A stretch of DNA of 64,000 nt from Pseudomonadota bacterium (GCA_040388215.1 JAZKCH010000015.1:17771-81770); one strand, 5' to 3'; positions 14,422 to 43,854 are shown, counted from the stretch's first letter. Numbers and translations are program-made. The notes: a model not told the origin generated them from the letters alone.

Positions 14422-16134
14422 TCAGACCGCGATGATCGCTGCGTCGGCGTCCCCGTCCAGCAGCAGGTGGAGCAGGCCCGGCGCCGGGCGGGCGATCGCA
14501 TGGATGCCCAGTGCCTCGAGTGCGGGTGTCGAGGCGCGGTCGACATCCTTCAAGCGGATCCGCAGGCGGGTGCCATGCTGGCTTGCCGCCTCCAGATTGT
14601 CCGCGCCGCCGAGTGCGGCGACGGTGGCGGGGGTCAGCCGGATGTCGTTGGTGGCGACCGGTGCCGGCTCTGCGGTCGGGGGTGTCGCCTCGTTCGGCGC
14701 GGCGATCGCGTCGCGGATTTCGACCGCGACCGAATCGGCAATCGGACCGAGCACGATCTGCAGCGCGTTATCCGAGGGGCGGATCAGGCCGCGTGCGCCG
14801 AGTGCCTTCAGGCGCGCTTCGTCGACGCGCTTCTGGTTCACGACGATAAGGCGCAGGCGGGTCGTGCACGCGCCAACGCTGGTGAGGTTCGCCGCGCCGC
14901 CGAGCGCTTCGGCAAACGCGGCGCCGCGCTCGCTCTTGGCGACGGTTGCCGCGGCGACGGGTGCATCGCGCTCGCGGCCGGGGGTGGGCAAGTCGAGGCG
15001 CTTGATGACGGTGCGGAACAGGACGTAGTAGATCGCTGCATACGCGAGACCGACCGGGAGCAGGAGCAGCGGCTTGGTCGCCTTGCCGTAGTTCAGCACG
15101 TAATCGAACAGCCCGGCGGAGAAGCCGAAGCCCAATTTCACGCCGAGCGCATCCATCAGCGCCATCGACACGCCGGTCAGCACCGCGTGGATCGCGTAGA
15201 GCACCGGCGCGAGGAACATGAAGCTGAACTCGATCGGCTCGGTCACGCCGGTCAGCATCGAGGTTAGCGCGAGGCTGAGCAGCATGCCGCCGACCGCCTT
15301 GCGACGCTCGGGCAACGCGGTGTGGTACATCGCGAGGCAGGCGGCGGGCAGGCCGAACATCATCACCGGGAAGAACCCGGCCATGAACGCGCCCGCGGTC
15401 GGATCGCCTGCGAAGAAGCGCCGCAGATCGCCCGTGGTGCCCTGGTAATCGCCGGCGACGAACCAGACGATGTTGTTGAGCAGATGGTGCAGCCCAGTGA
15501 CGAGCAACAGGCGGTTGAGCAGGCCGAACGCGAACAGGCCGAACCCGCCTGCGCCGCTGATGCCGTAGCTGAGGCCATCGATACCCGTGCTGAGTGCGCC
15601 GAAGCCGAGGCCGACGACCAGCCCGAGCACGAGGCCTGCGACGCCGCTGACGATCGGCACGAACCGGCGCCCGCCGAAGAAGGCGAGATATTCGGGCAGC
15701 GCGATCGCGGAGAAGCGGTTGTAGAAACTGCCGCCGATCAGCCCCGACAGAATGCCGATCGGTACGTCGAGTCGGGCGATCGCCTTGGCCTTCCACGCGG
15801 CGGTGGCGAGCGCGATCGTGTCGCCGGTGAAACCTTTGAGCGCGTCGGCGGGGACGGTCATCAGCGCCTGCGCACCCTGCGTGGTGACGAGGTAGCAGAC
15901 CACGCCGGCGAGACACGCCGCGCCGTTGCCGTCGCGCGCGAACCCGGTCGCGACGCCGATCGCGAACAACAGGCCGAGATGCGAGAAGATCGCGTCGCCC
16001 GCTGCGCCGAGCACCGCGATGTCGAGCATGTCGGGCTGGCCGAGGCGCAGCAGGAGGCCGGCGACGGGGAGCACCGCGATCGGCAGCATGAGTGCGCGGC
16101 CGAGCGGCTGGAGGGCTTCGAGCAGCGACTTCAT
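14422..16134 (-). CDS. nagE: PTS N-acetylglucosamine-specific EIICB with an extra C-terminal EIIB-like domain
   Basis: LGRALMLPIAVLP, TGLHHLLN and GVTEPIEF (EIIC); ACTTRLR (EIIB, Cys423); second LGGADN...QHGTRLR domain. Confidence 0.92.
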   Translation of the reverse strand: MKSLLEALQPLGRALMLPIAVLPVAGLLLRLGQPDMLDIAVLGAAGDAIFSHLGLLFAIGVATGFARDGNGAACLAGVVCYLVTTQGAQALMTVPADALKGFTGDTIALATAAWKAKAIARLDVPIGILSGLIGGSFYNRFSAIALPEYLAFFGGRRFVPIVSGVAGLVLGLVVGLGFGALSTGIDGLSYGISGAGGFGLFAFGLLNRLLLVTGLHHLLNNIVWFVAGDYQGTTGDLRRFFAGDPTAGAFMAGFFPVMMFGLPAACLAMYHTALPERRKAVGGMLLSLALTSMLTGVTEPIEFSFMFLAPVLYAIHAVLTGVSMALMDALGVKLGFGFSAGLFDYVLNYGKATKPLLLLPVGLAYAAIYYVLFRTVIKRLDLPTPGRERDAPVAAATVAKSERGAAFAEALGGAANLTSVGACTTRLRLIVVNQKRVDEARLKALGARGLIRPSDNALQIVLGPIADSVAVEIRDAIAAPNEATPPTAEPAPVATNDIRLTPATVAALGGADNLEAASQHGTRLRIRLKDVDRASTPALEALGIHAIARPAPGLLHLLLDGDADAAIIAV

Positions 16135-18737
16135 GGGCGGAAACTCCGGGCGAGCGTTCGCACGTCCGCGGCTGAGATGCAGTTCATCGCGGCGGCGGCA
16201 TGCGCCCTACACGCGTCGATCGTAAGCGTCGCGACTAGCGCCTTGATCTCGGGCACGAGCGCGGGCGCGGACGAGAGTTCGGTGACGCCGAGGCCGATCA
16301 GGATCGGTACGGCGAGCGGATCGGAGGCGAGGCCGCCGCATACGCCGGTCCATTTGCCGTGGACCGCGCCGCCCTCGCAGGTGCGCGCGATCAGGCGGAG
16401 GACGGCGGGGTGGAGCCCGTCGAGGTCGCTGGCGACCGCCGGATTGCCGCGGTCCATCGCGAGCGCATATTGCGTCAGGTCGTTGGTGCCGATCGATAGG
16501 AAGTCGGCTTCGCTTGCCAGCAGGTCTGCGGTGATCGCGGCGGCGGGCGTCTCGATCATGATGCCGAGCGCGACATGTTCCGTGTGCTCGGTCGCGGCAG
16601 CGGCCGCGTCGAGCGCGGCGCGGACCGCGCGGAGTTCGGCGAGGCTCGCGATCATCGGCACCATGATGCGGCACTGGCCTGCGGGGCGGACCGCGAGGAT
16701 CGCACGCAGTTGTGCGTCGAGCATTTCGGGATGGGCTAGGCCGACGCGGATGCCGCGCAGGCCGAGCGCCGGGTTCTCTTCCGCGGCGATCGGGAGGTAG
16801 GGGGCGGGCTTGTCGCCGCCGATGTCGAGCAGGCGGACGATCAGCGGGCGGCCGTCGAGCGTGTCGGCGATGCGCTGGTAATCTGCGGTCTGTTCCTCGA
16901 CGCTGGGCGCGCTGTCGCGTTCGAGGAACAGGAATTCGGTGCGAAGTAGCCCGCAGCCCTCGGCGCCGTTACGGACCGCGGCCTCGGCATCGTCGGCAGA
17001 CCCGAGATTGGCGAAGGCTTCGATCCGGACGCCGTCCTGCGTGCGGCATTCGCGCGCGGCGTTGGCGAGCGCGGCGCGGCGGCGTTCGGTCTGCGCGTCG
17101 AACGCGGTTTGCGCGGTCGCCTGTGTTTCGGCATCGGGCGCGACGTGGAGCAGGCCCGCGCCGGCGTCGAGGATCAGCGGCGTGCCCGCGGCGATCTCGG
17201 CGAGGGCTGGGCCGACTGCGACGAGAGCGGGCAGGCCCATCGTCGCGGCGAGGATCGCGACATGCGAGGTGGGGCCACCGCGCTCGACGCAGAAGCCGAC
17301 GATCGAGGCTGTATCTAGGCCGAGCAGATGCGAGGGGAGCAGGTCATCCGCCAGCAGGATCGTGCCGGGTGGGAAGCTCAAGCGCTCGTCGAGGTCTTCG
17401 CCCGCGAGCGCGCGCAGGACCTGGCGTTCGAGGTCGAGCATGTCGTCGGCGCGTTCGGCGAGGCGGGCGTCGCCGGTGGCGTGAAGGGCGTCTGCCTGCG
17501 CACGGATCGCGGTGCGCCACGCATAGGCGGCGCTCTCGCCTTGGGTGATCGCTGCGTGCGCGGCGTCGGTGAGGGTCGGGTCGTCGAGCAGGGCGGCATG
17601 CGCGGACAGGATTGCGCGTTCGGCGCCGGTCGCGGTTGCCGATTTGGTGGCGAGGCGGTCTGTGACCGTAGCGAGCGCGGTGTCGAGTGCGGTGCGTTCG
17701 GTGGTTGCGCCCGAGCCTTCGCGGGTCACGGCGATCTCGGCGAGGCGGAAGAGTCCGGCCTGGCCGATCGCGATTCCCGGAGAGGCGGTGACGCCGGGCA
17801 GGCGGCCGTCAGCGGGGAGGGTGGTGGCTTTAGCGGCATCGCCCTTCTGTTCCCCCGCGGAGGCGGGGGCCCAGGACCCCGCGGCGCCATCGTTCTTGGC
17901 TCCTGGGCCCCCGCCTTCGCGGGGGAAAACGGAAGTGGACGGTGCTACTGCCGGGGGCGTGGTAGCACCGGACCCGGCCTTCTCACCCATGCCGCCGAGG
18001 ATCAGGTCGCCTATCGCCGCGAGCGCGTCGGTGGCATCTGGGCCGGTGGCGGCGAGCGTGATCTCGTCGCCGAGCTTTACGCCCAGCGCCATCAGCGCGA
18101 CCGGGCTGCGGACGTTACCGTCGCGCTCGTCCTTCGTGATCTTCACGTCGGACACGAACTTCCGCGCGGTCTCGCCGATGCGGGCTGCTGGGCGGGCGTG
18201 AATCCCGTGGACCAGCGGCACGACGATCGTGCGGCGGACGGTATCGCCCTCGACGATTGCCACGTCGGCGGCATCGACGCGCGGTTCGAGCGTCATCATC
18301 GCCTCGCCGACGCCGACCAGCTTGCCGGTCTCGCGGCGGACGATGGTGAAGTGCTCGGGGTTGGTGACGATCACCGGCGTGATGACCGCGCGCGCCTCGC
18401 AGACCAGCAGGTCGAGATCGAAGCGGATCAGCGGATCGAGCCGCTGGACGCTCGCGCCCTCGGTTACGCAAGGGGTGAACCCGCGGCCGCCGAGCGCCAC
18501 CGTGTCGAGCCCGATATGCATCAGGATCTCGGCGCCTTCGGGCGTGCGTAGCGTGATCGCGTGGCCGCTGGCGTGGACGCTGAGCACGACTGCGTCGCAC
18601 GGTGCGTGCAGGCAGTCGCCGGTCGGATCGACGGCGATCCCGTCGCCCATCATCCGTTCGGCGAAGACCGGGTCTGGGACCGCCTCGAGCGGCGATGCCC
18701 AGCCCTGGAGGGGCGACGTCAGGATGATCGGCTTCAT
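16131..18737 (-). CDS. nagF: Multiphosphoryl transfer protein EIIA-HPr-EI (NagF/PtsP)
   Basis: LMHIGLDTV (EIIA), GIHARPA (HPr), GPTSHVAIL, GLLRTEFLF and SIGTNDLTQY (EI). Confidence 0.92.
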   Translation of the reverse strand: MKPIILTSPLQGWASPLEAVPDPVFAERMMGDGIAVDPTGDCLHAPCDAVVLSVHASGHAITLRTPEGAEILMHIGLDTVALGGRGFTPCVTEGASVQRLDPLIRFDLDLLVCEARAVITPVIVTNPEHFTIVRRETGKLVGVGEAMMTLEPRVDAADVAIVEGDTVRRTIVVPLVHGIHARPAARIGETARKFVSDVKITKDERDGNVRSPVALMALGVKLGDEITLAATGPDATDALAAIGDLILGGMGEKAGSGATTPPAVAPSTSVFPREGGGPGAKNDGAAGSWAPASAGEQKGDAAKATTLPADGRLPGVTASPGIAIGQAGLFRLAEIAVTREGSGATTERTALDTALATVTDRLATKSATATGAERAILSAHAALLDDPTLTDAAHAAITQGESAAYAWRTAIRAQADALHATGDARLAERADDMLDLERQVLRALAGEDLDERLSFPPGTILLADDLLPSHLLGLDTASIVGFCVERGGPTSHVAILAATMGLPALVAVGPALAEIAAGTPLILDAGAGLLHVAPDAETQATAQTAFDAQTERRRAALANAARECRTQDGVRIEAFANLGSADDAEAAVRNGAEGCGLLRTEFLFLERDSAPSVEEQTADYQRIADTLDGRPLIVRLLDIGGDKPAPYLPIAAEENPALGLRGIRVGLAHPEMLDAQLRAILAVRPAGQCRIMVPMIASLAELRAVRAALDAAAAATEHTEHVALGIMIETPAAAITADLLASEADFLSIGTNDLTQYALAMDRGNPAVASDLDGLHPAVLRLIARTCEGGAVHGKWTGVCGGLASDPLAVPILIGLGVTELSSAPALVPEIKALVATLTIDACRAHAAAAMNCISAADVRTLARSFRP
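17850..17927. repeat. REP-type inverted doublet inserted in frame in nagF (78 bp, 26 codons)
   Basis: TTCCCCCGCGGAGGCGGGGGCCCAGGA-N24-TCCTGGGCCCCCGCCTTCGCGGGGGAA (26/27 inverted repeat). 17848-17874 matches the intergenic repeat arm at 51518-51544 at 24/27. Confidence 0.88.
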
Positions 18738-18740
18738 GGA

Positions 18741-19892
18741 CTAAATTCCGTCTGCGATCTTGAGGCCACCGATCCAGGTGCCGGCGGGCCTGAGGTCGGC
18801 GGTCAGCGCCACCCAGTCGGCGCGCAGGCCGGGGGCTAGCGTTCCACGTTCGTGTGCGAAGCCGAGGAACGCGGCGGGGTTGGTCGCCGCCATCGCTGCT
18901 GCGGTCGGCACGTCGGCGTGCGTCCGCGCGACGAAATTGCGGACCGCGCCGGCCATGTCGAGGTCGGAACCGGCGAGCGTGCCGTCCTCGCCGAAGCACT
19001 TGCCGTCCTCGACATGGATCAGGCGCCCCTGAAGGCGGAAGTCCTTGTCGACCGCACCGACCGACGGCATCGCGTCGCTGACCAGCATCAGCCGGTCATG
19101 CGGACGTGCGTTGAGCGCGAGCCGAAGCGCGGCGTCGTGGACGTGCAGGCCGTCGGCGATCAGTCCGCAATAGACGTGACGATCGTCGAGCGCCGCACCG
19201 ACCACGCCGGGCGCGCGGTGGAGCAGCGGCGACATCGCGTTGAACAGATGCGTGATCCCGCTGAGCCCTGCACCGACCGCATCGATGATCGTCTCATAGT
19301 CCGCATCGGTATGGCCTGCGCTGACGATCACGCCGCCGGCGACCAGCCGCGCGATCGACGCCGCATCGGTCAGTTCGGGGGCGAGCGTCACCATCACGCG
19401 GCCCTTGCGCGGGCGGATCAACAACTCGATCATCGCATCGTCGAGCAGCCGGAACTTGGCGGGGTCGTGGATGCCCTTGCGCGACGGGTTGATCCACGGC
19501 CCTTCGATGTGCGCACCGACCACGCCGGGAACGCCAGCCTCGATCGCGGCGTCCATCGCGTCGAGCGTCGCCGCGATCACGTCGGGCGTGTCGCTGATCA
19601 GCGTCGGCATGAACGCGGTCGTGCCATAGGGCGCATGCGCCGCACCGATCGCGGCGATGCCCTCGACGGTCGGCTGGTCGTTGAGCAACACGCCGCCGCC
19701 GCCGTTGACCTGCGTATCGATGAAGCCGGGAACGAGCCAGCCGTTCTGGAGGTCGATCGCGTCCGACGGCGTACCGTCGAGTGCGGTTATCGACACGATC
19801 CGGCCGCCCTCGACCGTGATCGTCGCGCCGGTCAGCAGGGTGTCGGCGGTGACGATCGTGCCGTTTACGAAATGCATCTGCAGCGAACTCAT
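18741..19892 (-). CDS. nagA: N-acetylglucosamine-6-phosphate deacetylase
   Basis: PGFIDTQVNG, HIEGPW, SAGHT, THLFNAM, LIADGLHV and LAGSDL motifs. Confidence 0.95.
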   Translation of the reverse strand: MSSLQMHFVNGTIVTADTLLTGATITVEGGRIVSITALDGTPSDAIDLQNGWLVPGFIDTQVNGGGGVLLNDQPTVEGIAAIGAAHAPYGTTAFMPTLISDTPDVIAATLDAMDAAIEAGVPGVVGAHIEGPWINPSRKGIHDPAKFRLLDDAMIELLIRPRKGRVMVTLAPELTDAASIARLVAGGVIVSAGHTDADYETIIDAVGAGLSGITHLFNAMSPLLHRAPGVVGAALDDRHVYCGLIADGLHVHDAALRLALNARPHDRLMLVSDAMPSVGAVDKDFRLQGRLIHVEDGKCFGEDGTLAGSDLDMAGAVRNFVARTHADVPTAAAMAATNPAAFLGFAHERGTLAPGLRADWVALTADLRPAGTWIGGLKIADGI

Positions 19893-20944
19893 ACCGTCTT
19901 CGTGACCTTGCTGAGGTGGAGCGGCGCGTCGGGGTTGAGCCCGCGGCGCAGCGAGAGCGCGTTGGCCATTCGGTAGAAGCTTTGGATCATCAGGATCGGC
20001 TCGATCGCCGGATGCGCGGTGAACGCGGCGGGATCTGTTTCACCGTTCGCCTTCGCATCGGCGAGACATACGCGTGCGCCGCGTGCGGCAAACTCGGTTG
20101 CGGCCTCCCGCACGCCATCGCCGGCCGTATCGGAAGTCGCGAACGCGATTACCGGGAAGCCGTCGTTGACGATCGCCATCGGCCCGTGGCGGACCTCGGC
20201 GGCGCTGAACGCCTCGGCATGGAGCGCACAGGTTTCCTTGAGCTTCAATGCCGCTTCCTGCGCGATGCCGTAGCCATAGCCGCGACCGATCACGAACAGG
20301 TTGTTCGCATCGGCCAAGGCATCGACCACCGACGTCCAGTTCGCACCGAACGCGAGCGTCAGCATGTCGGGGAGCGTGTCGATCGCCTTGGTCAGTGCGT
20401 CGTTCTGCGACCACGCCGCGGTCAGCGCCGCGAACGCCGCGAGCGCGCAGATATAGGATTTGGTCGCCGCGACCGAGCGCTCTGGCCCGGCCTTCAGCGC
20501 GATCATCGTGTCGGCCATCTCGGCGAGCGGCGAACTCTCGTCGTTGACGAACGCGACGACATGCGCGCCCGCCGCCTGATAGGCGGACACGGTCGAAAGC
20601 AGGTCGGGGCTGCGGCCGCTCTGCGATACCGCGATCACGAGCGCGGTGCCGGGCGCCATCGGTGCGGCATAGACCGACGATACCGACGGCGCGGCCGATG
20701 CGACCGGCACGCCGAGCAGCGTCTCTATCAGGTATTTGCCATAGGTCGCTGCATGATCGGACGAGCCGCGCGCGCAGGTCACGACCACGGCAGGTGGCGC
20801 CGCGCGGAGGCGCTCACCGAGTGCGGCCAGCGCCTCGCGGTTGGCGGCGAGCAGCCGCGCGACCGCGTCGGCAGCTTCGGCGGCTTCGCTATACATCAGC
20901 GTCGGCGGCGACTCTATGGTCGCAGTATCGATAGTCTCGGTCAC
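19889..20944 (-). CDS. SIS-domain glucosamine-6-phosphate deaminase (NagB-II type)
   Basis: ARGSSDHA, SQSGRSPD, VAATKSY, EAALKLKE and EVRHGP motifs, GlmS-like isomerase half without a glutaminase domain; GTG start; ATGA overlap with nagA. Confidence 0.88.
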   Translation of the reverse strand: MTETIDTATIESPPTLMYSEAAEAADAVARLLAANREALAALGERLRAAPPAVVVTCARGSSDHAATYGKYLIETLLGVPVASAAPSVSSVYAAPMAPGTALVIAVSQSGRSPDLLSTVSAYQAAGAHVVAFVNDESSPLAEMADTMIALKAGPERSVAATKSYICALAAFAALTAAWSQNDALTKAIDTLPDMLTLAFGANWTSVVDALADANNLFVIGRGYGYGIAQEAALKLKETCALHAEAFSAAEVRHGPMAIVNDGFPVIAFATSDTAGDGVREAATEFAARGARVCLADAKANGETDPAAFTAHPAIEPILMIQSFYRMANALSLRRGLNPDAPLHLSKVTKTV

Positions 20945-20978
20945 GGTAAGCCCCCCGGCCGGCGCCCGTGCGCCAGCG

Positions 20979-21716
20979 TCAGATGTCGTTCAGTTCGGCG
21001 ACGAGGTCGTACGCGTCGCCACGATAGTAGGATTGGGTGAATTCGGCGGCCCGGCCATCGCGCAGGAAACCACGGCGCTCGATGAACAGGCCGGCATGGC
21101 CTGCATCGACGCCGAGCATCTTGGCATGCTCCGGGCTGAAATGAACCGCGCGCAGGCGTTGCAACGCGCGGACCGGACGGTTGCCCGCCGCTTCGAGCGC
21201 TTCGTACAACGAGTCCTGGACGGCATCGATCGTCGGCAGGCAGTATCCGGCGATCGTCGAATATTCGAGTGCCATCGGGGTGTCGTCAGCGTAGCGAATG
21301 CGCTGGAACCGGTACACCGCCGAGCCAGGCGACAGCCCGAGCGACAGCGATTCCTCGGGCGTCACCATACCGATCGTCCGGCTGACCCATGCGCTGCTCG
21401 GCGTGCGACCGCGCGACTGCATATCCTCCGAGAAGGACGACAGTTTCGAGAAGCTCTTCTCGACGCGAGTGGCGACGAACGTCCCCGCGCCGCGGCGGCG
21501 GGTGAGCAGGCCTTCCTCCACCAGCCCGCCGATCGCTTTTCGCACGGTGATGCGCGACACGTCGTATTCGATCGCAAGATCGCGTTCGGCCGGCAGCGCA
21601 TCGTCCTTGGCCAGCACGTTGCGGTTGATCGCATCGCGGATCAACTGCTGAAGCTGGACGTACAACGGCGCGGGATTGCCATCCCGGAACCTGCCAATGC
21701 TCGTTGAAAAGGACAT
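20979..21716 (-). CDS. GntR/HutC-family (UTRA) regulator, NagQ-like
   Basis: PLYVQL...LPAERDLA...VSRITVRKA...GAGTFV HTH plus UTRA domain; heads the nag genes. Confidence 0.9.
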   Translation of the reverse strand: MSFSTSIGRFRDGNPAPLYVQLQQLIRDAINRNVLAKDDALPAERDLAIEYDVSRITVRKAIGGLVEEGLLTRRRGAGTFVATRVEKSFSKLSSFSEDMQSRGRTPSSAWVSRTIGMVTPEESLSLGLSPGSAVYRFQRIRYADDTPMALEYSTIAGYCLPTIDAVQDSLYEALEAAGNRPVRALQRLRAVHFSPEHAKMLGVDAGHAGLFIERRGFLRDGRAAEFTQSYYRGDAYDLVAELNDI

Positions 21717-21803
21717 GAAGGCGACTTTCGATGATGCCGGAGCGGGCCTCGAAACGAGAATGACCCGGCAACCGATCTTGGATACGTTATGTATTGGTAT
21801 TGT

Positions 21804-22580
21804 TCAAGCGGCTTGACCGACTGTGTTTCTGAGTACGGCCTTGAGATTTCGTACGCGCGTAACATCGGTATTGCGACGCGCGGCCGCAGCAAAGCCGAAT
21901 TGACGCTGGCGCGCAGTCGTTGCGGACGTGCCGTCTTCGTTGCTAGATGCGACGAGACTGCCGCAGGACGCGTGGACTTCCCCGATGCCCGTCGCGAGGA
22001 TTTCCGAGACGTTGCCAGCATCGATGCCGCTACCGGCGAGGATCACGATGCGGCCCGCGGCACGACGATGGAGCGTGTCCAGCATCGCGAGCCCGTCGAC
22101 CGCCTTGGGTTCGCCGCCTGAGGTCAGGACGCGGTCGAAACCGAGTGCGATCGCGGCGTCGAGTGCGGCCGGCATGTCATCGCACAGGTCGATCGCACGG
22201 TGCAGCGTCAGCGATAGTGGCACGCTACGCGCCGTACTCAAGGTGCGGGCATGGGTGACGAGCGCCGCGAGTAGATCGGTGTCGAGGCTGTGGTCAGCGC
22301 GGCTGGCGCCGATCACGACGCCCGCAAGGCCTGCGTCGCTGGCGGCGGTCATGTCCGCGGCAATCATGGCCGCCTCGCGCGCGTTATAGTGGAAGCCGCC
22401 TTCGCGGGGTCTGGCGAGCAGATGGACGGGAATCGAAATGGCCGTCGCCGCGGCGATCAGAGAGGGCGAGGGGGTCAGTCCACCTAAAGCCAGAGCCGCG
22501 CACAACTCAATCCGGTCGCCGCCACCCGCGACGGCCGAATCGAGCCCCGCGATATCGTCGACACAGATTTCTAAGGTCAT
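21804..22580 (-). CDS. cutC: CutC-family (PF03932) TIM-barrel protein
   Basis: Likely start MTLEICVDD at 22580; RIELC, GGLTPS, RPREGGF, HRAID, RVLTSG and ILAGSGI motifs. Confidence 0.9.
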   Translation of the reverse strand: MTLEICVDDIAGLDSAVAGGGDRIELCAALALGGLTPSPSLIAAATAISIPVHLLARPREGGFHYNAREAAMIAADMTAASDAGLAGVVIGASRADHSLDTDLLAALVTHARTLSTARSVPLSLTLHRAIDLCDDMPAALDAAIALGFDRVLTSGGEPKAVDGLAMLDTLHRRAAGRIVILAGSGIDAGNVSEILATGIGEVHASCGSLVASSNEDGTSATTARQRQFGFAAAARRNTDVTRVRNLKAVLRNTVGQAA

Positions 22581-22596
22581 CAGGCAGCCTTCAGTG

Positions 22597-22882
22597 AATG
22601 GTAATAATATTACGTTTGGCCGATCGAATCGCATGCTTCAATCCCCAAAAATATGGAGACCGGTAAGAAAATGGTATTAGAGCTCGTTCGGCGCTTGGAG
22701 CGGGCAGGCGCCTGTCTGAGGGCTCTAAGGCCTTGTAAGGGCCTATTATACAACGAGAAAACCAGAGGATGGGCGGCTGACCGAATTGGTAACCAAACTG
22801 TAATTTCCGATGGATTCCGAAATCAAATTGGTTATACGGTAGCCCTACCAAGTCGCTTAGATAGTAACCAAAACAGTACCAA
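22597..22882. promoter_or_regulatory. Divergent cutC/TBDR promoter region with multiple TGGT/ACCA GntR(HutC)-type half-sites
   Basis: AT-rich region with AATGGTAAT (~22597), ATGGTATT (22671), TTGGTAACCAA (22786-22796), TTGGTTATAC (22828), GGTAG-CC-CTACC (22838-22849), TAACCAA and TACCAA (~22865-22882). Confidence 0.5.
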
Positions 22883-22953
22883 GCGACGGGTGATCAAAGG
22901 GGCGCGGCATGCGTCGGGGTGGCGCTGCGGCGCTGAGGGAAGGGGCTTTGACG

Positions 22954-25743: not shown

Positions 25744-25746
25744 CAC

Positions 25747-25780
25747 GGGGGCGCGTCGGGAACGGCGCGCCCTCCTCTTT
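25747..25780 (+). terminator. Probable intrinsic terminator or stabilising hairpin after the TBDR
   Basis: 12-bp GC stem GGGGGCGCGTCG-GGAA-CGGCGCGCCCTC (two G-U pairs) followed by CTCTTT. Confidence 0.6.
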
Positions 25781-25813
25781 GACGCTCTCTATGACGGAAG
25801 CACACCGCCACGC

Positions 25814-35569: not shown

Positions 35570-38124
35570 TCCGCAATGCGCTGTTCGCTACCCCGCTCGC
35601 CGCCCTGCTCGCCACGTCCGCGCTTGCGCAGACGGTCGATCCGGCGGTCCGCAGCATGACGCTCGACGAGAAGGCGGCGCAGTTGCAGAGCGTCGCGCCG
35701 GCGATCCCGCGGTTGAACCTGCCGGCCTATGATTACTGGAACGAGGGGCTGCACGGGCTCGCGCGCAACGGCGTGGCGACGGTGTTTCCGCAGGCGATCG
35801 GCCTCGCCGCGACGTGGGACGAGGCGCTGCTCAGGCGGGTGGGCGATGTCGTGTCGACCGAGGCGCGCGCGAAGTCCAATGCGCTGCCGGCGGGCGACCG
35901 CGAACGCTATCAGGGGCTGACGATCTGGTCGCCCAACATCAACATCTTCCGCGATCCGCGTTGGGGGCGGGGGCAGGAGACGTATGGCGAGGATCCGTAT
36001 CTAACGGGGCGGCTGGGGGTTGCGTTCATCGGCGGGTTGCAGGGGCCGTACCTTGCGCATCCGAAGGTGATCGCGACGCCGAAGCATTTGGCTGCGCATA
36101 GCGGGCCCGAGGCGGGGCGCGACGGGTTCGATGTCGATATCTCGCCGCACGACCGCGAGGCGACGTTCCTGCCTGCGTTCCGGATGGCGCTGACCGAGGG
36201 CAAGGCGCTGTCGACGATGTGCGCATATAATGCGATCCACGGGGTTCCCGTGTGCGCGTCGGCGCCGTTGCTCGACCAGACGGTGCGCAAGGAGTGGGGC
36301 TTCAAGGGACTGATCGTGTCGGACTGCGATGCGGTCGGGAATATCTCGAACTACCATTATTATCGGCCGGATAATGCGAGCGGATCGGCGGCGGCGATTT
36401 CCGCAGGGATGGATTTCAATTGCGGGCGTACGTACGCGGCGCTTGGCGATGCGGTGCGGCGGGGGCTGGTGCCCGAGGCGACGCTCGACACGAGCCTGAC
36501 GCGGACGTTTGCGGTGCGGCGGATGCTGGGCGGCGCGTTCGGGGCAACGAGCCCGTGGGACAAGATCAAGCCGACCGAATTCGACACGCCTGCGCACCGT
36601 GCGCTGGCGCTGGAGGCTGCGCGGAAGGCGATGGTGCTGGTCCAGAACAACGGCGTGTTGCCGCTTAAACCGTCGGCGAAGATCGCGGTCATCGGGCCGA
36701 ATGCCGACAGCGTCGACGTGCTGGAGGCGAATTATCACGGTACGGCCGCGGCGCCCGTTACGCCGTTGGCGGCGCTGCGGACGGCGTTTGGCGGCGTGCG
36801 GTATGCTCAGGGGTCGAGCATCGCCGAGGGTGTGCCGGTCCCGGTGCCCGACACAGCGCTGTCGCTGCGCGGCGAGTATTTCCGGGGGAGCGATTTCGCG
36901 GGGACTCCCGTGGTGCGCGCCGACCGGACGATCGACTTCGATTGGGATCGCACCGCGCCCGCGCCGGGGATCGATCCGGCGGCGTTCTCGGTGCGCTGGA
37001 CCGGCACGATCACCGCGCCGGCGGCGGGCGAGTATGTGTTCCGGCTCGACGTGCCGCGCTGCTTCGACTGCAAGGGGCATGATCCCTCGCGGTTGTGGAT
37101 CGACGACAAGCTGGTCGCCGATGACGATGGCAGCGGCAAGGCCGTCGAGGCACCGGTGACGCTGACCGCCGGACCTCACGCGATCCGTGTCGAACTCGCG
37201 CATAGCGGTGAGGACCAGGGGCTGCGGCTGACCTGGACTGCGCCGGCCGACGCACAGGTTGCGGAGGCGGTTGCTGCCGCCAAGGATGCCGACGCGATCG
37301 TCGCGTTCGTGGGGCTGTCGCCCGCGGTCGAGGGCGAGGCGTTGCAGATCGGGGTCGCCGGGTTCTCGGGTGGCGATCGGACCGATATCGGGCTCCCCGC
37401 CGCGCAGATTCGCCTGCTCGAAGCGGCGAAGGCGACCGGCAAGCCGCTGGTGGTCGTGCTGATGACCGGCAGCGCGGTCGCGATGACCTGGGCGAAGGCG
37501 CATGCCGACGCGATCCTGGTCGGCTGGTATCCGGGGCAGGCTGGCGGGCAGGCGATCGCCGATACGCTGGTTGGCAAGAGCAATCCGGGCGGGCGACTAC
37601 CGGTGACGTTCTACGCGAAGACGCGCGATCTGCCTGCGTTCATCGACTACAACATGCGTGAGCGGACCTATCGGTATTTTACCGGCACGCCGCTGTGGGG
37701 CTTCGGACACGGGCTGAGTTATACGCAGTTCGCGTATGCTGCGCCCAAACTCGCGCGCAACACGATTGCGGCGGGGGAGAGCGTCACGATCGAAGTACCG
37801 GTGCGTAATACCGGCAAGGTTGCGGGGGACGAAGTGGTGCAGGCGTATCTCGTGCCGCCCGAGCCGGCGGTGAAGCCGCGCTTCAACGATCCCGTCCTCC
37901 AGCGCCAGTTGGTCGGGTTCAGGCGCCAGACAGTGAAGCCGGGTCAGACGGCGCGCGTGGCATTTACGATCGATCCGCGGGGGATGAGTAGCGTCGATGC
38001 GGCGGGCAATCGAAGTGTCGTGCCGGGCGAATACCGGCTGCAGATCGGTGGCGGCCAGCCAGGCGACGGGCCGGGTGTCGAGACCGTCTTCACCGTGACG
38101 GGAAGCAAGGATTTGCCGAAATGA
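35566..38124 (+). CDS. GH3 beta-xylosidase/glucosidase with inserted PA14 domain and FnIII C-terminus
   Basis: WNEGLHG, FPQAIGLAATWD, WSPNINIFRDPRWGRGQETYGEDP, KHLAAH and VSDC motifs; FSVRWTG (PA14). Confidence 0.93.
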   Translation: MIRNALFATPLAALLATSALAQTVDPAVRSMTLDEKAAQLQSVAPAIPRLNLPAYDYWNEGLHGLARNGVATVFPQAIGLAATWDEALLRRVGDVVSTEARAKSNALPAGDRERYQGLTIWSPNINIFRDPRWGRGQETYGEDPYLTGRLGVAFIGGLQGPYLAHPKVIATPKHLAAHSGPEAGRDGFDVDISPHDREATFLPAFRMALTEGKALSTMCAYNAIHGVPVCASAPLLDQTVRKEWGFKGLIVSDCDAVGNISNYHYYRPDNASGSAAAISAGMDFNCGRTYAALGDAVRRGLVPEATLDTSLTRTFAVRRMLGGAFGATSPWDKIKPTEFDTPAHRALALEAARKAMVLVQNNGVLPLKPSAKIAVIGPNADSVDVLEANYHGTAAAPVTPLAALRTAFGGVRYAQGSSIAEGVPVPVPDTALSLRGEYFRGSDFAGTPVVRADRTIDFDWDRTAPAPGIDPAAFSVRWTGTITAPAAGEYVFRLDVPRCFDCKGHDPSRLWIDDKLVADDDGSGKAVEAPVTLTAGPHAIRVELAHSGEDQGLRLTWTAPADAQVAEAVAAAKDADAIVAFVGLSPAVEGEALQIGVAGFSGGDRTDIGLPAAQIRLLEAAKATGKPLVVVLMTGSAVAMTWAKAHADAILVGWYPGQAGGQAIADTLVGKSNPGGRLPVTFYAKTRDLPAFIDYNMRERTYRYFTGTPLWGFGHGLSYTQFAYAAPKLARNTIAAGESVTIEVPVRNTGKVAGDEVVQAYLVPPEPAVKPRFNDPVLQRQLVGFRRQTVKPGQTARVAFTIDPRGMSSVDAAGNRSVVPGEYRLQIGGGQPGDGPGVETVFTVTGSKDLPK

Positions 38125-39554
38125 TCGACCGCCGGATGCTCATCGCGGGCGCTGCGGCGCTCGGTGTCGCGGGACCGCTGCGGGCGGCCGCACCGTCGTT
38201 CGTCAGCAAGCGCCCGAAGCTTGGTGATCGTCGCTACACCAGTCGCGCGGTCGAGGCGGAGATCGCGCGCGTGTCGGCGAAGGTCGCCGATCCCGAACTC
38301 GCCTGGATGTTTGGCAATTGCTACCCGAACACGCTCGACACGACGGTGTTCATGGGTGTGGTCGACGGTAAGCCCGACGCGTTCGTGATCACCGGCGACA
38401 TCGACTGCATGTGGCTGCGCGACAGCTCGGCGCAGGTCCATCCGTACCTCCCGCTGGCGAAGCGCGACCCGGCGTTGCGGACGCTGTTTCGCGGGCTGAT
38501 CGCGCGGCAGGCGCGGTGCATCCTGATCGATCCGTACGCCAACGCGTTCATGCACGACCCGTCGGCGAAGACCAACCTGAGCTGGTCGCTGACCGACGAC
38601 ACGGTGATGAAGCCGGGCGTCGGCGAGCGCAAATGGGAGGTTGACTCGCTCTGCTACCCGATGTGGATCGCGCATGCCTATTGGCAGGCGACCGGCGACA
38701 CCGTGCCGTTCGACGCGCTGTGGGCGGACGGCGCGCGCGCGTCGATCCGGACGTTCCGCGAGCAGCAGCGCAAGGACAGGCCGGGCCCGTATCGCTTTCG
38801 TCGCTCTTCGCCGATCGTCGGCGAGAGCATGGCGCTCGACGGCTATGGTCCGCCGTCGCGCCCGGTCGGGCTGATCCATTGCGGGTTCCGGCCGTCGGAC
38901 GATGCGTGCGTGCTCCCGTTCCTGATCCCGTCGAACATCTTCGCGGTCCGTGCGCTGCGCCAACTGGCGGAACTCGCGACGCGCGCGCGGCCCGACGCGG
39001 CGCTGGCGGCGGATGCGAGCGCGCTGGCCGACGAGGTCGAGGCGGCGTTGCGGTTGCATGGGCTGACCAAGGGGCCGGATGGCCAGCCGGTCTGGGCGTA
39101 TGAGGTCGATGGATACGGCAACGCGATCTTCATGGACGACGCCAATGTGCCGAGCCTCTCGGGGCTGGCGTATCTCGGTGCGGTGAAGGCCGACGATCCG
39201 CTCTGGCGGCGCACCGCGGCGCGCGCGTGGAGCAAGGACAACGCGTATTTCTTCACCGGCAAGGCGGCGGAGGGGATCGGCAGTCCGCATACGGGCTTGC
39301 GTGAGATCTGGCCGATGTCGATTGTGATGCACGCGTTGAACGCGCTCGAGACGGGCGACGACGCGACCGTCGCGCGGTCGCTGGCGGCGCTCAAATCGAC
39401 GCATGGCGGGACCGGGTTCATGCATGAATCCTTCAATCAGGACGACGGCGCGAAGTTCACGCGGTCGTGGTTCGCCTGGGCCAACGGGCTGTTCGGCGAG
39501 CTGATCGTCGACATCGCCGCCAAAAATCCCGCCCTTCTCGGAGTCCGCGCATGA
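38121..39554 (+). CDS. GH125 exo-alpha-1,6-mannosidase
   Basis: Tat signal DRRMLI; TGDIDCMWLRDS, ERKWEVDSLC, MDDANVPSL, MHESF and FAWAN motifs. Confidence 0.93.
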   Translation: MIDRRMLIAGAAALGVAGPLRAAAPSFVSKRPKLGDRRYTSRAVEAEIARVSAKVADPELAWMFGNCYPNTLDTTVFMGVVDGKPDAFVITGDIDCMWLRDSSAQVHPYLPLAKRDPALRTLFRGLIARQARCILIDPYANAFMHDPSAKTNLSWSLTDDTVMKPGVGERKWEVDSLCYPMWIAHAYWQATGDTVPFDALWADGARASIRTFREQQRKDRPGPYRFRRSSPIVGESMALDGYGPPSRPVGLIHCGFRPSDDACVLPFLIPSNIFAVRALRQLAELATRARPDAALAADASALADEVEAALRLHGLTKGPDGQPVWAYEVDGYGNAIFMDDANVPSLSGLAYLGAVKADDPLWRRTAARAWSKDNAYFFTGKAAEGIGSPHTGLREIWPMSIVMHALNALETGDDATVARSLAALKSTHGGTGFMHESFNQDDGAKFTRSWFAWANGLFGELIVDIAAKNPALLGVRA

Positions 39555-41866
39555 CCATCACTCGCCGTATGCTCCTCGCCGGGAGCGGTGCGCTCGCGCT
39601 GACCGCGCGCGCGACGTTTGCCGCCACGCCGCGCGGGCAGCAGACTGCACCCGATCTGTTCGTTGGCACCGGTGGTCATGGCCATACCTATCCGGGCGCG
39701 ACGCTGCCGTTCGGGATGGTGCAACTTAGCCCCGATACCGATGTCGAGCGCTGGGATGCGTGCTCGGGCTATCACCGCACCGACACGTCGATCATGGGGT
39801 TCAGTCATACGCATCTGTCGGGCACCGGGATCGGCGACATGCTCGACGTGCTGGTGGTGCCGACGCGTGGGCCGGTGCAGCTGACGCCGGGCACGCTCGC
39901 TGATCCGGATGCGGGGTATCGCCAGCGCTTCTCCGCCGAACATGCCGAGCCGGGCTATTACCGCGTGACGCTGGAATCGGGCGTGCGCGCGGAGCTGACC
40001 GTGACCGAGCGAACCGGCATCCAGCGGCATGTGTTTCCGGCTGGCGCGGGGCACATCCTCGTGAACCTATCGCACCTGGTGCTCGACAAGACCGACAAGG
40101 GCGTGCTGATCGACGATGCGTCGCTGAACATCGACGAGACCGGCATGCTGACCGGCAGCCGCCGCGTGTTCCGCTGGGCGAAGGGGCGGCGGATCCACTT
40201 CGCGATGCAGGTGTCGCGCAAGCCCGACCGGATCGTCTTCTACGGCGATGGCGACGTCGCGCAGTCTGCGGGCGCGAAGGGCGTTGCGGGCAAGCGCGTC
40301 AAGGCGGTGCTGCATTACGACGACGCTGGCGCTGCGCCGATCATGATCCGCACGGGAATCTCCGCGGTCGACGTTGCCGGCGCGCGCGCGAACCTTGCGG
40401 CGGAGGCGCGGCATTGGGATTTCGATCGCTACCGTGCCGATGCGACCAAAAGCTGGGCGCCCGCGCTCGCCGCCGTCAGCGTCGAGGGTGGCACGCCGGC
40501 GCAGCGCACGATCATGGCGAGCGCGCTGTACCATGCACAGCTCGCACCGACGCTCTTCTCGGATGTCGACGGGCGCTATGTCGGGCTCGACCGGCAGATC
40601 CACACGGTGACCGGCAAGGACCGTGCGTATAGTTCGTATTCGATGTGGGACACGTATCGCGCGCTGCATCCGCTGCTCACGCTGATCGAGCCCGAGCGGA
40701 CCGCCGAGCTCGTCGGCGACCTGATCCGGCAGACGCAGCAGAGCCCGTACGGCCCGCCGGTCTGGCCTTTGCAGGGCGTCGAGACGGGGTGCATGATCGG
40801 CTGGCATTCGGTGTCGGTGATGGCCGAGGCGCGCGTCAAGGGTGTGCCGGCGAACTACGCCGCGGCATGGCCGAACGTGCGCCGCCGCTCGTTCGATTTC
40901 GCGATGCCTACGATGGACAACAGCCTCGGGATCAAGCCGTACGACACGATGGGCTACATCCCCGCCGACACGGTGTTCGAGTCGGTCTCGCGCACGCTCG
41001 AATATGCGTATGACGATTACGCGTCGGCGCATTTGGCCGATGCGGCGGGCGCGAGTGCCGATGCCGCGCGGTTGCGCAAGCGGAGTGGGAACTGGCGCAA
41101 CGTGTTCGATGCGTCGATCGGGTTCGCGCGGCCGAAGCTCGCGAACGGGACATGGACCACGCCGTACGATCCGATCGCGCTCGGCCATGCGTCGAAGTGG
41201 CGCGATTATACCGAGAGCAATGGCTGGCAGGCGACGTTCCTCAACCAGCACGACGTCTACGGCCTGATCGCGGCGATGGGCGGCGATGCGAAGTTCGAGG
41301 CGAAGCTCGACGGGCTGTTCAACGCGCCGTCGATCTTGCCGAAGGACGCGCCGCCCGACATCTCCGGGCTGGTCGGGCAATATGCGCACGGCAACGAGCC
41401 GAGCCACCACGTCGCGTATATGTATGCGTATTGTGGCGCGGCTTGGAAGACTCAAGGCATGGTCCGGCGGCTGCTGACCGAGATGTACAAGGACGATCCC
41501 GACGGCATCATTGGCAACGACGATTGCGGGCAGATGAGCGCGTGGTTCGTGCTGAGCGCGCTCGGCCTGTACCCGGTCGATCCGGTGAGCGCGAATTATG
41601 TGCTGGGATCGCCGCTGTTCGAGCGGGCGGAGATGCGCGTCGGCGCAGGCCGGACTCTCGTCGTCGAGGCGCGCGGCAATGCGGCGGATCGGCCGTATGT
41701 GCAGTCGGTTACGTGGAACGGCCGGCCTTGGACAAAGAGCTGGATCGCGCATGCCGATATCGTGCGCGGTGGCCAGCTCGTGTTCGAGATGGGCGCGACG
41801 CCCAACCGTGATTTTGGCCGCGCGCCTGCCGATCGGCCGCCAGCAACCACCGGAGTTTCGCGATGA
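39551..41866 (+). CDS. GH92 alpha-mannosidase
   Basis: Tat signal TRRMLL; GHTYPGA, QLSPDT, HTHLSGTG, HGNEPSHH and GNDDCGQMSAW motifs. Confidence 0.94.
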   Translation: MTITRRMLLAGSGALALTARATFAATPRGQQTAPDLFVGTGGHGHTYPGATLPFGMVQLSPDTDVERWDACSGYHRTDTSIMGFSHTHLSGTGIGDMLDVLVVPTRGPVQLTPGTLADPDAGYRQRFSAEHAEPGYYRVTLESGVRAELTVTERTGIQRHVFPAGAGHILVNLSHLVLDKTDKGVLIDDASLNIDETGMLTGSRRVFRWAKGRRIHFAMQVSRKPDRIVFYGDGDVAQSAGAKGVAGKRVKAVLHYDDAGAAPIMIRTGISAVDVAGARANLAAEARHWDFDRYRADATKSWAPALAAVSVEGGTPAQRTIMASALYHAQLAPTLFSDVDGRYVGLDRQIHTVTGKDRAYSSYSMWDTYRALHPLLTLIEPERTAELVGDLIRQTQQSPYGPPVWPLQGVETGCMIGWHSVSVMAEARVKGVPANYAAAWPNVRRRSFDFAMPTMDNSLGIKPYDTMGYIPADTVFESVSRTLEYAYDDYASAHLADAAGASADAARLRKRSGNWRNVFDASIGFARPKLANGTWTTPYDPIALGHASKWRDYTESNGWQATFLNQHDVYGLIAAMGGDAKFEAKLDGLFNAPSILPKDAPPDISGLVGQYAHGNEPSHHVAYMYAYCGAAWKTQGMVRRLLTEMYKDDPDGIIGNDDCGQMSAWFVLSALGLYPVDPVSANYVLGSPLFERAEMRVGAGRTLVVEARGNAADRPYVQSVTWNGRPWTKSWIAHADIVRGGQLVFEMGATPNRDFGRAPADRPPATTGVSR

Positions 41867-43854
41867 CCTTGGATCTCAATCGCCGCGCGTTGATCGCCGG
41901 TACGCTCGCTACTGCCGCTGCCGGTCGTGCGAACGCCGCGGCCCCGGTCGGTGCGCCCGTCCCCTGGGGTGCGACGCCAAGCGTCCGACAGCTCGCTTGG
42001 CATAAGCGCGAGCGCTACGGCTTCGTTCACTTCACGCTGAACACCTGGACCGACAAGGAATGGGGCTATGGCGACGAGGATCCCAAGCTGTTCGACCCGA
42101 CCGCGTTCGATCCGGACCAGATCGTCGCGGCGGCGAAAAGCGCGGGGCTGACCGGGCTCGTCCTGACTGCCAAGCATCATGACGGTTTCTGCCTCTGGCC
42201 GACCAGGCTCACCGAGCATTGCATCCGCAACAGCCCGTACAAGGGCGGCAAGGGCGATATCGTCCGCGAACTGGGCGATGCGTGCCGGCGCGGCGGGATG
42301 TCCTACGGCCTGTATCTGTCGCCGTGGGATCGCAACCGCGCCGACTATGGCACACCCGCGTACGTCGAGTATTTCCGCGCGCAGCTGACCGATCTCTGCA
42401 CCAATTACGGCGAACTGTTCGAAGTGTGGTTCGACGGCGCGAACGGCGGCGACGGCTATTATGGCGGCGCGCGCGAGGCGCGGAAGATCGATGCGCCAAA
42501 ATATTACAACTGGCCGTCGATCATCGCGCTGGTCCACAAATTGCAGCCGATGGCGTGCACGTTCGACCCGCTCGGCGCTGACATCCGCTGGGTCGGCAAC
42601 GAGGATGGGCACGCGGGCGATCCGTGCTGGCCGACGATGCCGAACCATCCGTATGTGCAGGCCGAGGGCAATTCCGGCGTGCGCGGTGCGCCACTCTGGT
42701 GGCCGGCTGAGACGAACACGTCGATCCGTCCCGGCTGGTTCTATCATGCCGACGAGGACCTCCAGGTGAAGTCGCCGCAGCGGCTGATGCAGTTCCACGA
42801 CGAGTCGGTCGGGCGCGGCACCAACATGATGCTCAACCTGCCGCCCGATCGTCGCGGGCTGATCGCGGAGCCCGATCTCGCGTCGCTCAAATCGTTCGGC
42901 GATGCGTTGCGGGCGAGCTTCAGGACCGATCTGGCCAAGGGTGCAGTGGCGAGCGGACCGTCGCGCGGGGCCCGGTTTGCGCCGGCCAATGTGCTCGACG
43001 GCAATCCCGAGACGTACTGGAGCACGCCCGATGCGGTGAAGACGCCGTCGCTGGTGCTCGACCTGCCGCCCGGGCGCCGGTTCGACCTGATCCGGATCCG
43101 CGAGGCGCTCGACCTCGGCGTACGCGTGACGAAGTTCGCGATCGATGTGGCCGATGCCAAGGGCGCGTGGCGCGAGGTCGCGGTGCACGAGTGCATCGGT
43201 GCGCAGCGGATCATCCGCCTGCCCGAGCCGGTGACCGCGCGGCGCGTGCGGCTGCGGATCGTCGAGGCACCGGCGTGCCCGGCGATCACCGAGCTGTCGC
43301 TGTTCCTGAGCGTCGCGCCGGTCGCGGTCGCGGCGTCGCAGGCGACGGGCAACAAGATCATCTCGAAGACCGGGTGGACGATCGCCGGTGCGATCCAGCA
43401 CACCATAGCGATGAAGGCGGGCAAGCCGGATTTCGCGGCCGAGACATCGCTGGCGGGTGTGGTCAAGCCCGGATTGCCCGGTGCGGAGGCGGTGCTCGAC
43501 GACGATCTCGCGACCGTCTGGACGACGCCCGCGCCGACGCCGACGAGCATCGTGATGCTGATGATCGACATGGGCAAGGCGGACCAGGTCGCGGGGTTCA
43601 GCCTGACGCCGACGCGGCAGGCCTTGCCCGATGCCGGCCCGCCGGGGCGCTACCGCGTCGAGACGAGCGAGGACGGCAAGACCTGGACGCCGGCGAGCGA
43701 GGGTGAGTTCGGCAACATCGCCTATGCGCGTGCCACGCAGCGCATCACCTTCGCGCAGGCCCGAAAGGCGCGGTACCTGATGCTCGGCTTCACGACGGTC
43801 GCGACCGCGCAGCCGAAGATGGCGATCGCTGGTATCGGTGCGTTTCGGCCGTAA
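41863..43854 (+). CDS. GH29 alpha-L-fucosidase (alpha-1,3/4, GH29B-like) with two F5/8 type C-like domains
   Basis: Tat signal NRRALI; TAKHHDGFCLW, YLSPWDR, VWFDGA and SIRPGWFYH motifs. Confidence 0.93.
   Translation: MTLDLNRRALIAGTLATAAAGRANAAAPVGAPVPWGATPSVRQLAWHKRERYGFVHFTLNTWTDKEWGYGDEDPKLFDPTAFDPDQIVAAAKSAGLTGLVLTAKHHDGFCLWPTRLTEHCIRNSPYKGGKGDIVRELGDACRRGGMSYGLYLSPWDRNRADYGTPAYVEYFRAQLTDLCTNYGELFEVWFDGANGGDGYYGGAREARKIDAPKYYNWPSIIALVHKLQPMACTFDPLGADIRWVGNEDGHAGDPCWPTMPNHPYVQAEGNSGVRGAPLWWPAETNTSIRPGWFYHADEDLQVKSPQRLMQFHDESVGRGTNMMLNLPPDRRGLIAEPDLASLKSFGDALRASFRTDLAKGAVASGPSRGARFAPANVLDGNPETYWSTPDAVKTPSLVLDLPPGRRFDLIRIREALDLGVRVTKFAIDVADAKGAWREVAVHECIGAQRIIRLPEPVTARRVRLRIVEAPACPAITELSLFLSVAPVAVAASQATGNKIISKTGWTIAGAIQHTIAMKAGKPDFAAETSLAGVVKPGLPGAEAVLDDDLATVWTTPAPTPTSIVMLMIDMGKADQVAGFSLTPTRQALPDAGPPGRYRVETSEDGKTWTPASEGEFGNIAYARATQRITFAQARKARYLMLGFTTVATAQPKMAIAGIGAFRP

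Follow-up and report, generated by a model that had tools for sequence, protein, structure and literature searches.

A stretch of 64,000 nucleotides from a Pseudomonadota bacterium (GCA_040388215.1, JAZKCH010000015.1:17771-81770; hereafter the window) carries, between positions 14,422 and 43,854, two divergent gene sets that appear to form a Sphingomonas version of an N-glycan scavenging system. We put the probability of this reading at about 0.7. Its core is orthologous to the nix cluster of Xanthomonas and would have been rebuilt around different accessory enzymes and a phosphotransferase system (PTS) for N-acetylglucosamine (GlcNAc). One set, on the plus strand, consists of a gene for a TonB-dependent receptor (TBDR) followed by genes for eight exported glycosidases, and the other, on the minus strand, encodes GlcNAc uptake and catabolism. 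The presence of orthologues of the xylosidase and of the alpha-1,3-mannosidase, together with an alpha-1,3/4-type fucosidase, makes plant-type N-glycans the best-supported substrate; among such glycans, complex or paucimannose glycans are the most likely, and a plant substrate is plausible. The window has a G+C content of about 67%, and the source assembly comprises 3.43 Mb in 76 contigs and is 92.8% complete. The protein of glycoside hydrolase (GH) family 3 encoded here shares 96% identity with one from Sphingomonas faeni, indicating that the source genome is that of S. faeni or a close relative.

The Xanthomonas cluster used for comparison (L063) was found by an order-level search of Xanthomonadales and by the 1860-bit match of its GH2 protein to PDB entry 6BYC, a Xanthomonas beta-mannosidase; because of this score, we take L063 to be the nix cluster and 6BYC to be the NixH orthologue. 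Its gene order is TBDR-GH29 (with a Fucosidase_C domain)-GH18-GH20-GH2-GH3-GH125-GH92-GH35, a layout that also occurs in Rhodanobacter sp. ANJX3 (L052). In the window, the corresponding core genes are those for a GH20 beta-N-acetylhexosaminidase (27997-30285; Pfam Glyco_hydro_20, 366 bits), the GH2b beta-mannosidase (30285-32891; 1019 bits to 6BYC), a GH3 protein with a PA14 insert that is a candidate beta-1,2-xylosidase (35566-38124), a GH125 exo-alpha-1,6-mannosidase (38121-39554; Pfam GH125, 492 bits) and a GH92 alpha-mannosidase of the alpha-1,3 group (39551-41866), all on the plus strand. Gene order is collinear with L063, at protein identities of 49% (GH20), 53% (GH2b), 57% (GH3), 61% (GH125) and 57% (GH92), which bears out the initial annotation in its statement that the GH20-GH2-GH3-GH125-GH92 order was kept. 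The core is nix-like, since GH20, GH2b, GH3 and GH92 pair as reciprocal best hits with NixG, NixH, NixI and NixK, respectively, in the Xanthomonas cluster. In the reciprocal comparisons, GH3 is 57–59% identical to NixI, the next paralogue reaching 45–51%, and GH92 is likewise 57–59% identical to NixK. GH125 is NixJ-like, and a paralogue on another contig of the source genome (C8) is slightly closer to NixJ than the window protein is. For the activities of NixK, NixI and NixE we follow the summary in bioRxiv 10.1101/2022.04.07.487459.

The closest solved structures point in the same direction for two of these enzymes. The nearest structures to GH3 are those of beta-xylosidases, and the nearest NCBIfam model is xylosidase_Xyl3A. 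The best PDB match of GH92 is 7ZGM, an alpha-1,3-mannosidase of Bacteroides massiliensis active on plant N-glycans; BT3130 comes second. At the level of equivalogs, NCBIfam assigned a name to none of the eight glycosidases.

The fucosidase at the 3' end of the operon (41863-43854, plus strand) is of a different kind from that of Xanthomonas. Its structure matches were 8AYR (AmGH29D) at 510 bits, 3UES (AfcB) at 341 and 6ORG at 295, compared to about 60 bits or less for GH29-A enzymes. It is thus much closer to AfcB, AmGH29D and SpGH29 than to the GH29-A enzymes TM0306 and BT2970, placing it in subfamily B. The domain layout of AmGH29D (catalytic, galactose-binding-like and CBM32) is also that of the window protein, in which the latter two domains are of the F5/8-C type. 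AmGH29D removes alpha-1,3/4-linked fucose from Lewis a/x structures and is inactive on core alpha-1,6-fucose (PMC10067855). Identity to the Xanthomonas NixE orthologue is only 23%, with a different domain layout, so that the gene is not a NixE that moved to the other end of the cluster; by its sequence it is a Lewis-type alpha-1,3/4-fucosidase rather than a NixE-type enzyme. Elsewhere in the genome, an orphan GH29 gene with a Fucosidase_C domain lies among housekeeping genes (contig C46:30433-31971; L093). It is the best NixE-like gene of the genome, at 33% identity to the NixE orthologue, and may possibly encode a core fucosidase unlinked to the locus.

Two GH2 genes have no counterpart in the nix core, in agreement with the earlier report of an extra GH2 pair. 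The first, GH2a (25814-28000, plus strand; Pfam GH2 N-terminal, middle and TIM-barrel domains), is LacZ/GUS-like, lies at the 5' end of the glycosidase series and is a candidate beta-galactosidase, with only weak matches to characterised enzymes. Its orthologues share 77% identity in G305, the closest relative, and 51% in a Dyella locus. We discounted a beta-glucuronidase function for GH2a, since the NxK glucuronate motif is not at the aligned position, an argument of little weight. The second, GH2c (32888-35569, plus strand; 909 bits to 6BYC), is a beta-mannosidase-like protein with 49% identity to GH2b. G305 is the only relative that has it, and an approximately 92% identical contig from an ice metatranscriptome joins position 32872 directly to 35605, skipping GH2c, which points to a relative without the gene. 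These comparisons identify GH2c as an old paralogue that is variably present among close relatives. Both GH2a and GH2c are common only to the window and G305; the other relatives carry a different beta-galactosidase-like GH2 of about 1000 residues that is absent from the source genome.

All eight glycosidases bear leader peptides, five for the Sec pathway and three (GH125, GH92 and GH29; RRxLIAG/RRMLLAG) for twin-arginine translocation (Tat), the GH125 leader containing DRRMLIAG, and no lipobox was found in any of the eight. With Sec or Tat leaders and no lipobox, the enzymes would be soluble in the periplasm, so that only small glycans or glycopeptides can be what reaches them as substrates. 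The candidate route is the TBDR encoded at the head of the operon (22954, or 22909, to 25743, plus strand; Pfam Plug and beta-barrel domains), which scores 618 bits, over the cut-off, against NCBIfam TIGR01782 and belongs to the TonB-Xanth-Caul subfamily. It is only 35–42% identical to the receptors of nix loci. In G305 (L073/L074) the glycosidase layout is the same and the receptor is only 40% identical to that of the window, whereas the receptors of more distant relatives are 62–66% identical to it; this pattern, along with the lack of a GH29 after the GH92 of G305, suggests that the receptor and the end gene were swapped.

The translational organization of the operon is tight. All seven glycosidase-glycosidase junctions overlap (ATGA five times, TGATG once and GTGA once), and the only open junction is the 70-nt gap between the TBDR gene and GH2a. 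The earlier description of a TBDR followed by eight glycosidases with overlapping junctions thus holds for the glycosidases and stops short of the receptor. It had also described the operon as fused to a PTS. This must be revised on two counts, because the PTS genes form a divergent minus-strand operon with a separate transcript, sharing an intergenic region of about 370 bp with the glycosidase arm, and because the arrangement is the normal one of the lineage rather than a special fusion.

The layout is conserved. The nag/PTS genes, cutC, the GntR regulator gene and the GH20-GH2-GH3-GH125-GH92 series occur together in six of the ten same-genus (Sphingomonas) loci examined; GH29 is present in five of those six, and the sixth, G305, has none in the fetched region after GH92. 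One locus of another genus has cutC and most of the glycosidases, without GH92 directly downstream of GH125. Sampling more widely, we found GH125 in 15 of 36 species of the genus and in three of 150 other genomes of the family, and in none of 300 other alphaproteobacterial genomes. Named GH3 homologues belong to Sphingobium, Novosphingobium, Caulobacter, Niveispirillum and Rhodanobacter. In Xanthomonas, and in most of 53 Rhodanobacteraceae loci, the NixI orthologue occurs together with genes for a NixE-type GH29, a NixF-type GH18 (NixF being a putative endo-beta-N-acetylglucosaminidase) and a GH35 of the type of the beta-galactosidase NixL; none of the three was found in 13 Sphingomonadaceae loci.

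The initial annotation had further noted that the locus has neither GH18 nor GH35, which is correct, and had proposed a system without an endo-acting enzyme. Our searches extend the absences to the assembly: a GH18 endoglycosidase, GH85, PNGase F and PNGase A were not found in it, GH35 (PF01301) had no match anywhere in it, and tblastn with a GH35 of a nix locus returned nothing in the Sphingomonadaceae loci. A NixF-like GH18 was found neither in the locus, nor in the assembly, nor in those 13 loci. The only GH18 domain of the assembly is in a 1138-residue fusion of GH18-like, polysaccharide deacetylase and GT2 domains (contig C1:307546-310962; L004:9547-12963), which adjoins a gene for an alginate-export-type porin, is kept in relatives and is probably an exopolysaccharide synthase-modifier rather than an endoglycosidase. 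In five relatives with 100% complete genomes, GH18 is found only as that fusion of about 1130 residues. We therefore rejected an assembly gap as the explanation for the missing GH18, and consider the absence of a GH18 endoglycosidase to be a trait of the lineage.

The part of that proposal that did not stand is the implied lack of any enzyme for the step that breaks the link to the protein, which a glycosylasparaginase can supply. Of the two Asparaginase_2 genes in the genome, that on contig C6 is of the isoaspartyl-peptidase type. The product of the other, on contig C22, matches the Elizabethkingia glycosylasparaginase (1P4K/1AYY) over its full length at an E value of 1e-90, compared to 1e-28 for isoaspartyl peptidases, so that the genome search for such an enzyme proposed with the initial annotation has yielded a candidate. 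It contains the HDT nucleophile and autoprocessing motif, its beta chain starts at T230, and a Tat leader begins at M29. Its gene diverges from a second TBDR gene (1028 residues). In the relatives G333, G310 and G307, an orthologue (80–85% identity) directly precedes cutC-nagB-nagA-nagF-nagE; G333 and G310 also have the orthologue of its partner TBDR (86–87% identity) alongside, and the glycosidase operon comes next. Because the genes are contiguous in these relatives, we consider that the glycosylasparaginase belongs to the system and is merely separated from it in the source genome, and its membership argues that the substrates are Asn-linked glycans. An amidase is probably used here instead of an endoglycosidase.

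The catabolic arm accounts for the other end of such a pathway. It consists, on the minus strand, of nagE, for a GlcNAc-type EIIC-EIIB permease (14422-16134; Pfam PTS_EIIC, 222 bits, and PTS_EIIB); nagF, for an EIIA-HPr-EI multiphosphoryl transfer protein (16131-18737; PTS_EIIA_1, PTS-HPr and three PEP-utilizer domains); nagA, for a GlcNAc-6-phosphate deacetylase-like amidohydrolase (18741-19892; Amidohydro_1); nagB-II, for a glucosamine-6-phosphate deaminase of the SIS-domain type (19889-20944; SIS in two stretches); a GntR/HutC-type, NagQ-like regulator gene (20979-21716; GntR and UTRA); and a cutC-family gene (21804-22634; Pfam CutC, 207 bits). The start of cutC is probably at 22580, the profile match beginning at residue 19. 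The domain sets expected of the permease, the phosphotransfer protein, NagA, the deaminase and the regulator thus all occur in one operon, and from this gene context the sugar specificity of the PTS would be for GlcNAc. In relatives, nagE is 65–83% identical, the placement of nagA between nagB-II and the PTS genes is kept, and the GntR regulator is 73–93% identical and always adjoins the glycosidase operon. The Pseudomonas aeruginosa-type GlcNAc PTS operon, with its GntR regulator, SIS-type NagB, NagA, the EIIA-HPr-EI protein NagF and the EIICB protein NagE, has the same order as the window; it differs in that the window version begins with cutC and has a TBDR-glycosidase operon running away from it on the opposite strand.

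Both arms may be under common control. NagQ binds direct repeats of TGGTATT (PMC4494728), and the shared region between cutC and the TBDR gene (22581-22953) contains seven NagQ-like TGGTWWY sites where about 0.1 would be expected; nowhere else in the genome do three or more of these sites fall on the same strand within 120 nt. Seven relatives retain the sequence ATTGGTTATAC or ATTGGTTACA upstream of the operon. Between the C22 receptor and glycosylasparaginase genes there are three GGTAT repeats within 16 nt, which we regard as a hint only. A search for clusters of the strict TGGTAWT pattern was not specific, and the looser TGGTWWY and GGTAT searches are informative only as hints. The NagQ-like GntR protein is probably the repressor of both divergent arms. 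Scans for sigma-70 promoters and intrinsic terminators gave matches no more frequent than in shuffled sequence. Contigs from three RNA libraries, 90–95% alike to the window, span the operon; they come from relatives and cannot prove its transcription.

Taken as a pathway, small molecules bearing N-glycans (free N-glycans, glyco-asparagine and short glycopeptides) would cross the outer membrane via the TBDR and would be trimmed from the outside in by the eight soluble periplasmic exo-glycosidases, whose genes are translationally coupled. The likely order of removal begins with Lewis-type alpha-1,3/4-fucose (GH29), followed by what is probably beta-galactose (GH2a), beta-GlcNAc (GH20) and alpha-1,3-mannose (GH92). 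Next would come beta-1,2-xylose (GH3), alpha-1,6-mannose (GH125), beta-1,4-mannose (GH2b and GH2c) and, by GH20 again, the chitobiose. The GlcNAc-Asn bond would be cut by the Tat-exported glycosylasparaginase and not by an endo-glycosidase. The freed GlcNAc would enter via the PTS (NagE/NagF), and NagA and the SIS-type NagB would convert it to fructose-6-phosphate, with the NagQ-like repressor probably setting the expression of both arms. Compared to the nix system, the glycosylasparaginase would thus take the place of GH18, the Lewis-type GH29 that of NixE, a GH2 that of GH35, and the PTS that of NagP/NagK.

Several observations weigh against this scheme. GH2a lacks a close characterised relative. 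The closest solved homologue of GH2b and GH2c, 6BYC, is reportedly an enzyme that acts on beta-manno-oligosaccharides. The glycosylasparaginase gene is on another contig, unlinked to the locus in the source genome, and its tie to the regulon is drawn from synteny in relatives and from the weak hint of the GGTAT repeats. An assembly that is 92.8% complete leaves room for a missing endo-enzyme gene. Finally, the specificities of GH92 and GH125 are not readable from orthology alone, since both have close paralogues (65–67% identity to the window GH125 and GH92) in a second locus. That locus (contig C8:61864-81853; L060/L061) encodes a major facilitator superfamily transporter, a LacI regulator, four GH92 proteins, GH125, GH43, a TBDR and a ROK protein, and probably serves the utilisation of alpha-mannosides or high-mannose glycans. 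The pair of loci suggests a division of labour, in which C8 would handle high-mannose glycans or alpha-mannans, while glycans of the decorated complex or paucimannose kind would fall to the window locus.

The alternative that survives best, although we consider it unlikely, is that the locus serves N-glycans in general or mainly those from sources other than plants, such as mannoproteins of fungi or yeasts combined with oligosaccharides of chitin, or paucimannose glycans of insects. GH3 would then be a beta-glucosidase or beta-N-acetylglucosaminidase, GH29 would act on other fucosides, and the bacterium would scavenge from fungal walls and detritus. The nag/PTS arm and GH20 fit chitobiose equally well, and the nix cluster itself contributes to the use of chito-oligosaccharides in Xanthomonas (PMC4173781). 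GH92, GH125 and the GH2 beta-mannosidase cut the core that is common to all N-glycans. However, the genome already has the separate alpha-mannoside locus on C8, and the window locus is without GH76, GH99, GH38 and GH47. The reciprocal relationship of GH3 with the NixI orthologue and the beta-xylosidases that are its nearest characterised relatives, together with the alpha-1,3/4 type of GH29, also speak against a non-plant diet. Near-identical DNA occurs in factory and watershed as well as plant metagenomes, a distribution that could be cited for a broader diet, and in three further organisms; the metagenome occurrences neither support nor refute a plant niche.

It is considerably less probable that an endo-acting enzyme exists and was missed, whether in the unassembled 7% of the genome, in a family not searched, or because GH2b, GH2c or CutC might perform an unrecognised releasing step. 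The state of the assembly, with its 76 contigs, allows for this, GH2c and cutC are without assigned roles, and cutC recurs in such loci in two orders, yet the five complete relatives have GH18 only in the exopolysaccharide-synthase-like fusion, and the glycosylasparaginase already accounts for the missing step. The weakest alternative, that the substrates are plant cell-wall oligosaccharides (beta-manno- and xylo-oligosaccharides, and pieces of fucosylated or galactosylated hemicellulose) and that the GlcNAc regulon is adjacent by chance, draws on the closeness of GH2b and GH2c to the Xanthomonas beta-mannosidase structure 6BYC and of GH3 to xylan beta-xylosidases, but is very improbable given that the 6BYC protein is itself a NixH orthologue encoded in the Xanthomonas N-glycan cluster, that hemicellulose offers no substrate to GH20 or to the alpha-mannosidases GH125 and GH92, that the glycosylasparaginase, nag genes and glycosidases are contiguous in three relatives, and that the seven overlapping junctions indicate co-translation of the eight glycosidase genes.

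The N-glycan scavenging system that we favour shares with the Xanthomonas nix system a TBDR gene at the head of an operon of exported exo-glycosidases, and the collinear core, and would also share with it a tie to GlcNAc catabolism and to a regulator that responds to GlcNAc. It differs in lacking the NixE-type GH29, the NixF GH18 and the NixL GH35; in having a second beta-mannosidase paralogue as well as a LacZ-like GH2 first (5') and a Lewis-type GH29 last (3') among the glycosidase genes; in taking up GlcNAc by a PTS rather than by NagP/NagK; and in the association of this locus type with a glycosylasparaginase and cutC. The plant N-glycan pathway of B. massiliensis (Crouch et al. 2022, bioRxiv 10.1101/2022.04.07.487459) likewise acts in the periplasm in a fixed order, with a GH92 alpha-1,3-mannosidase, a GH3 beta-1,2-xylosidase, an alpha-1,3/4-type GH29 and a GH2 beta-galactosidase, activities that are predicted from sequence for the window, and it is the source of the GH92 structure, 7ZGM, that the window GH92 matches best. 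There, import is by SusC/D and the glycan is released by a type II PNGase, whereas the window has a proteobacterial TBDR, no PNGase was found in its assembly, and the glycosylasparaginase is the candidate amidase. The genes of B. massiliensis are scattered over several loci, in contrast to the eight translationally coupled genes of the window. The lysosomal and Elizabethkingia routes resemble the proposed one in combining exo-glycosidase trimming with cleavage of GlcNAc-Asn by a glycosylasparaginase of the N-terminal nucleophile hydrolase type, to which the C22 protein is closely related by its E value and its retained HDT motif. Unlike those enzymes, the C22 protein is predicted to be periplasmic, Tat-exported, paired with a TBDR and unlinked to the glycosidase genes.

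We regard the locus as a lineage variant of a known system and not as a new principle. It nevertheless shows that a nix-orthologous core exists in Sphingomonas, a dominant leaf-surface genus, and, as a natural experiment, it can help to tell the essential steps of plant N-glycan breakdown from the interchangeable ones. It also supplies candidate enzymes for glycan analysis and a testable context for the function of CutC. Going further, we can tentatively postulate, with rather less than even confidence, that Sphingomonas and some other Sphingomonadaceae have an endoglycosidase-free, lysosome-like periplasmic route for N-glycans, in which a dedicated TBDR would bring in glyco-asparagine or short glycopeptides, exo-glycosidases would strip these, glycosylasparaginase would cleave the bond that is left, and CutC, which accompanies such genes in two or more bacterial orders, would be a missing enzyme or chaperone. 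If this were true, plant N-glycans would be food for leaf commensals that are abundant; among bacteria associated with plants, earlier reports of this trait concern only Xanthomonas and Xylella.

Related loci in both Sphingomonadaceae and Xanthomonadales also have cutC. The gene comes right after that for the glycosylasparaginase in G333, G310 and G307 (L076, L078 and L080), adjoins GH2-GH3-GH125-GH92 in a Xanthomonadales genome, and is found inside an alpha-mannoside locus in G322; the occurrences recorded include L067:7999-8703 and G149. In several Dyella genomes (L012, L013, L018, L020, L044 and L053), a reduced cluster comprises a TBDR, a NixE-type GH29, GH18, a NixI-type GH3 and GH35, with the mannosidases absent and GH20 present in some, indicating that the xylosidase orthologue also serves in a different, smaller gene set.

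Two features of the DNA itself may affect the operon or its surroundings. The gap between the TBDR gene and GH2a (25744-25813) contains a G+C-rich inverted repeat, GGGGGCGCG...CGCGCCC, which might attenuate read-through from the receptor gene to the enzyme genes. Just past the stop codon of GH29, at 43860-43900, matching contigs increase about ten-fold in three of four runs and have many different loose ends, the signature of a dispersed repeat, resembling a repetitive extragenic palindromic (REP) element, at the 3' end of the operon.

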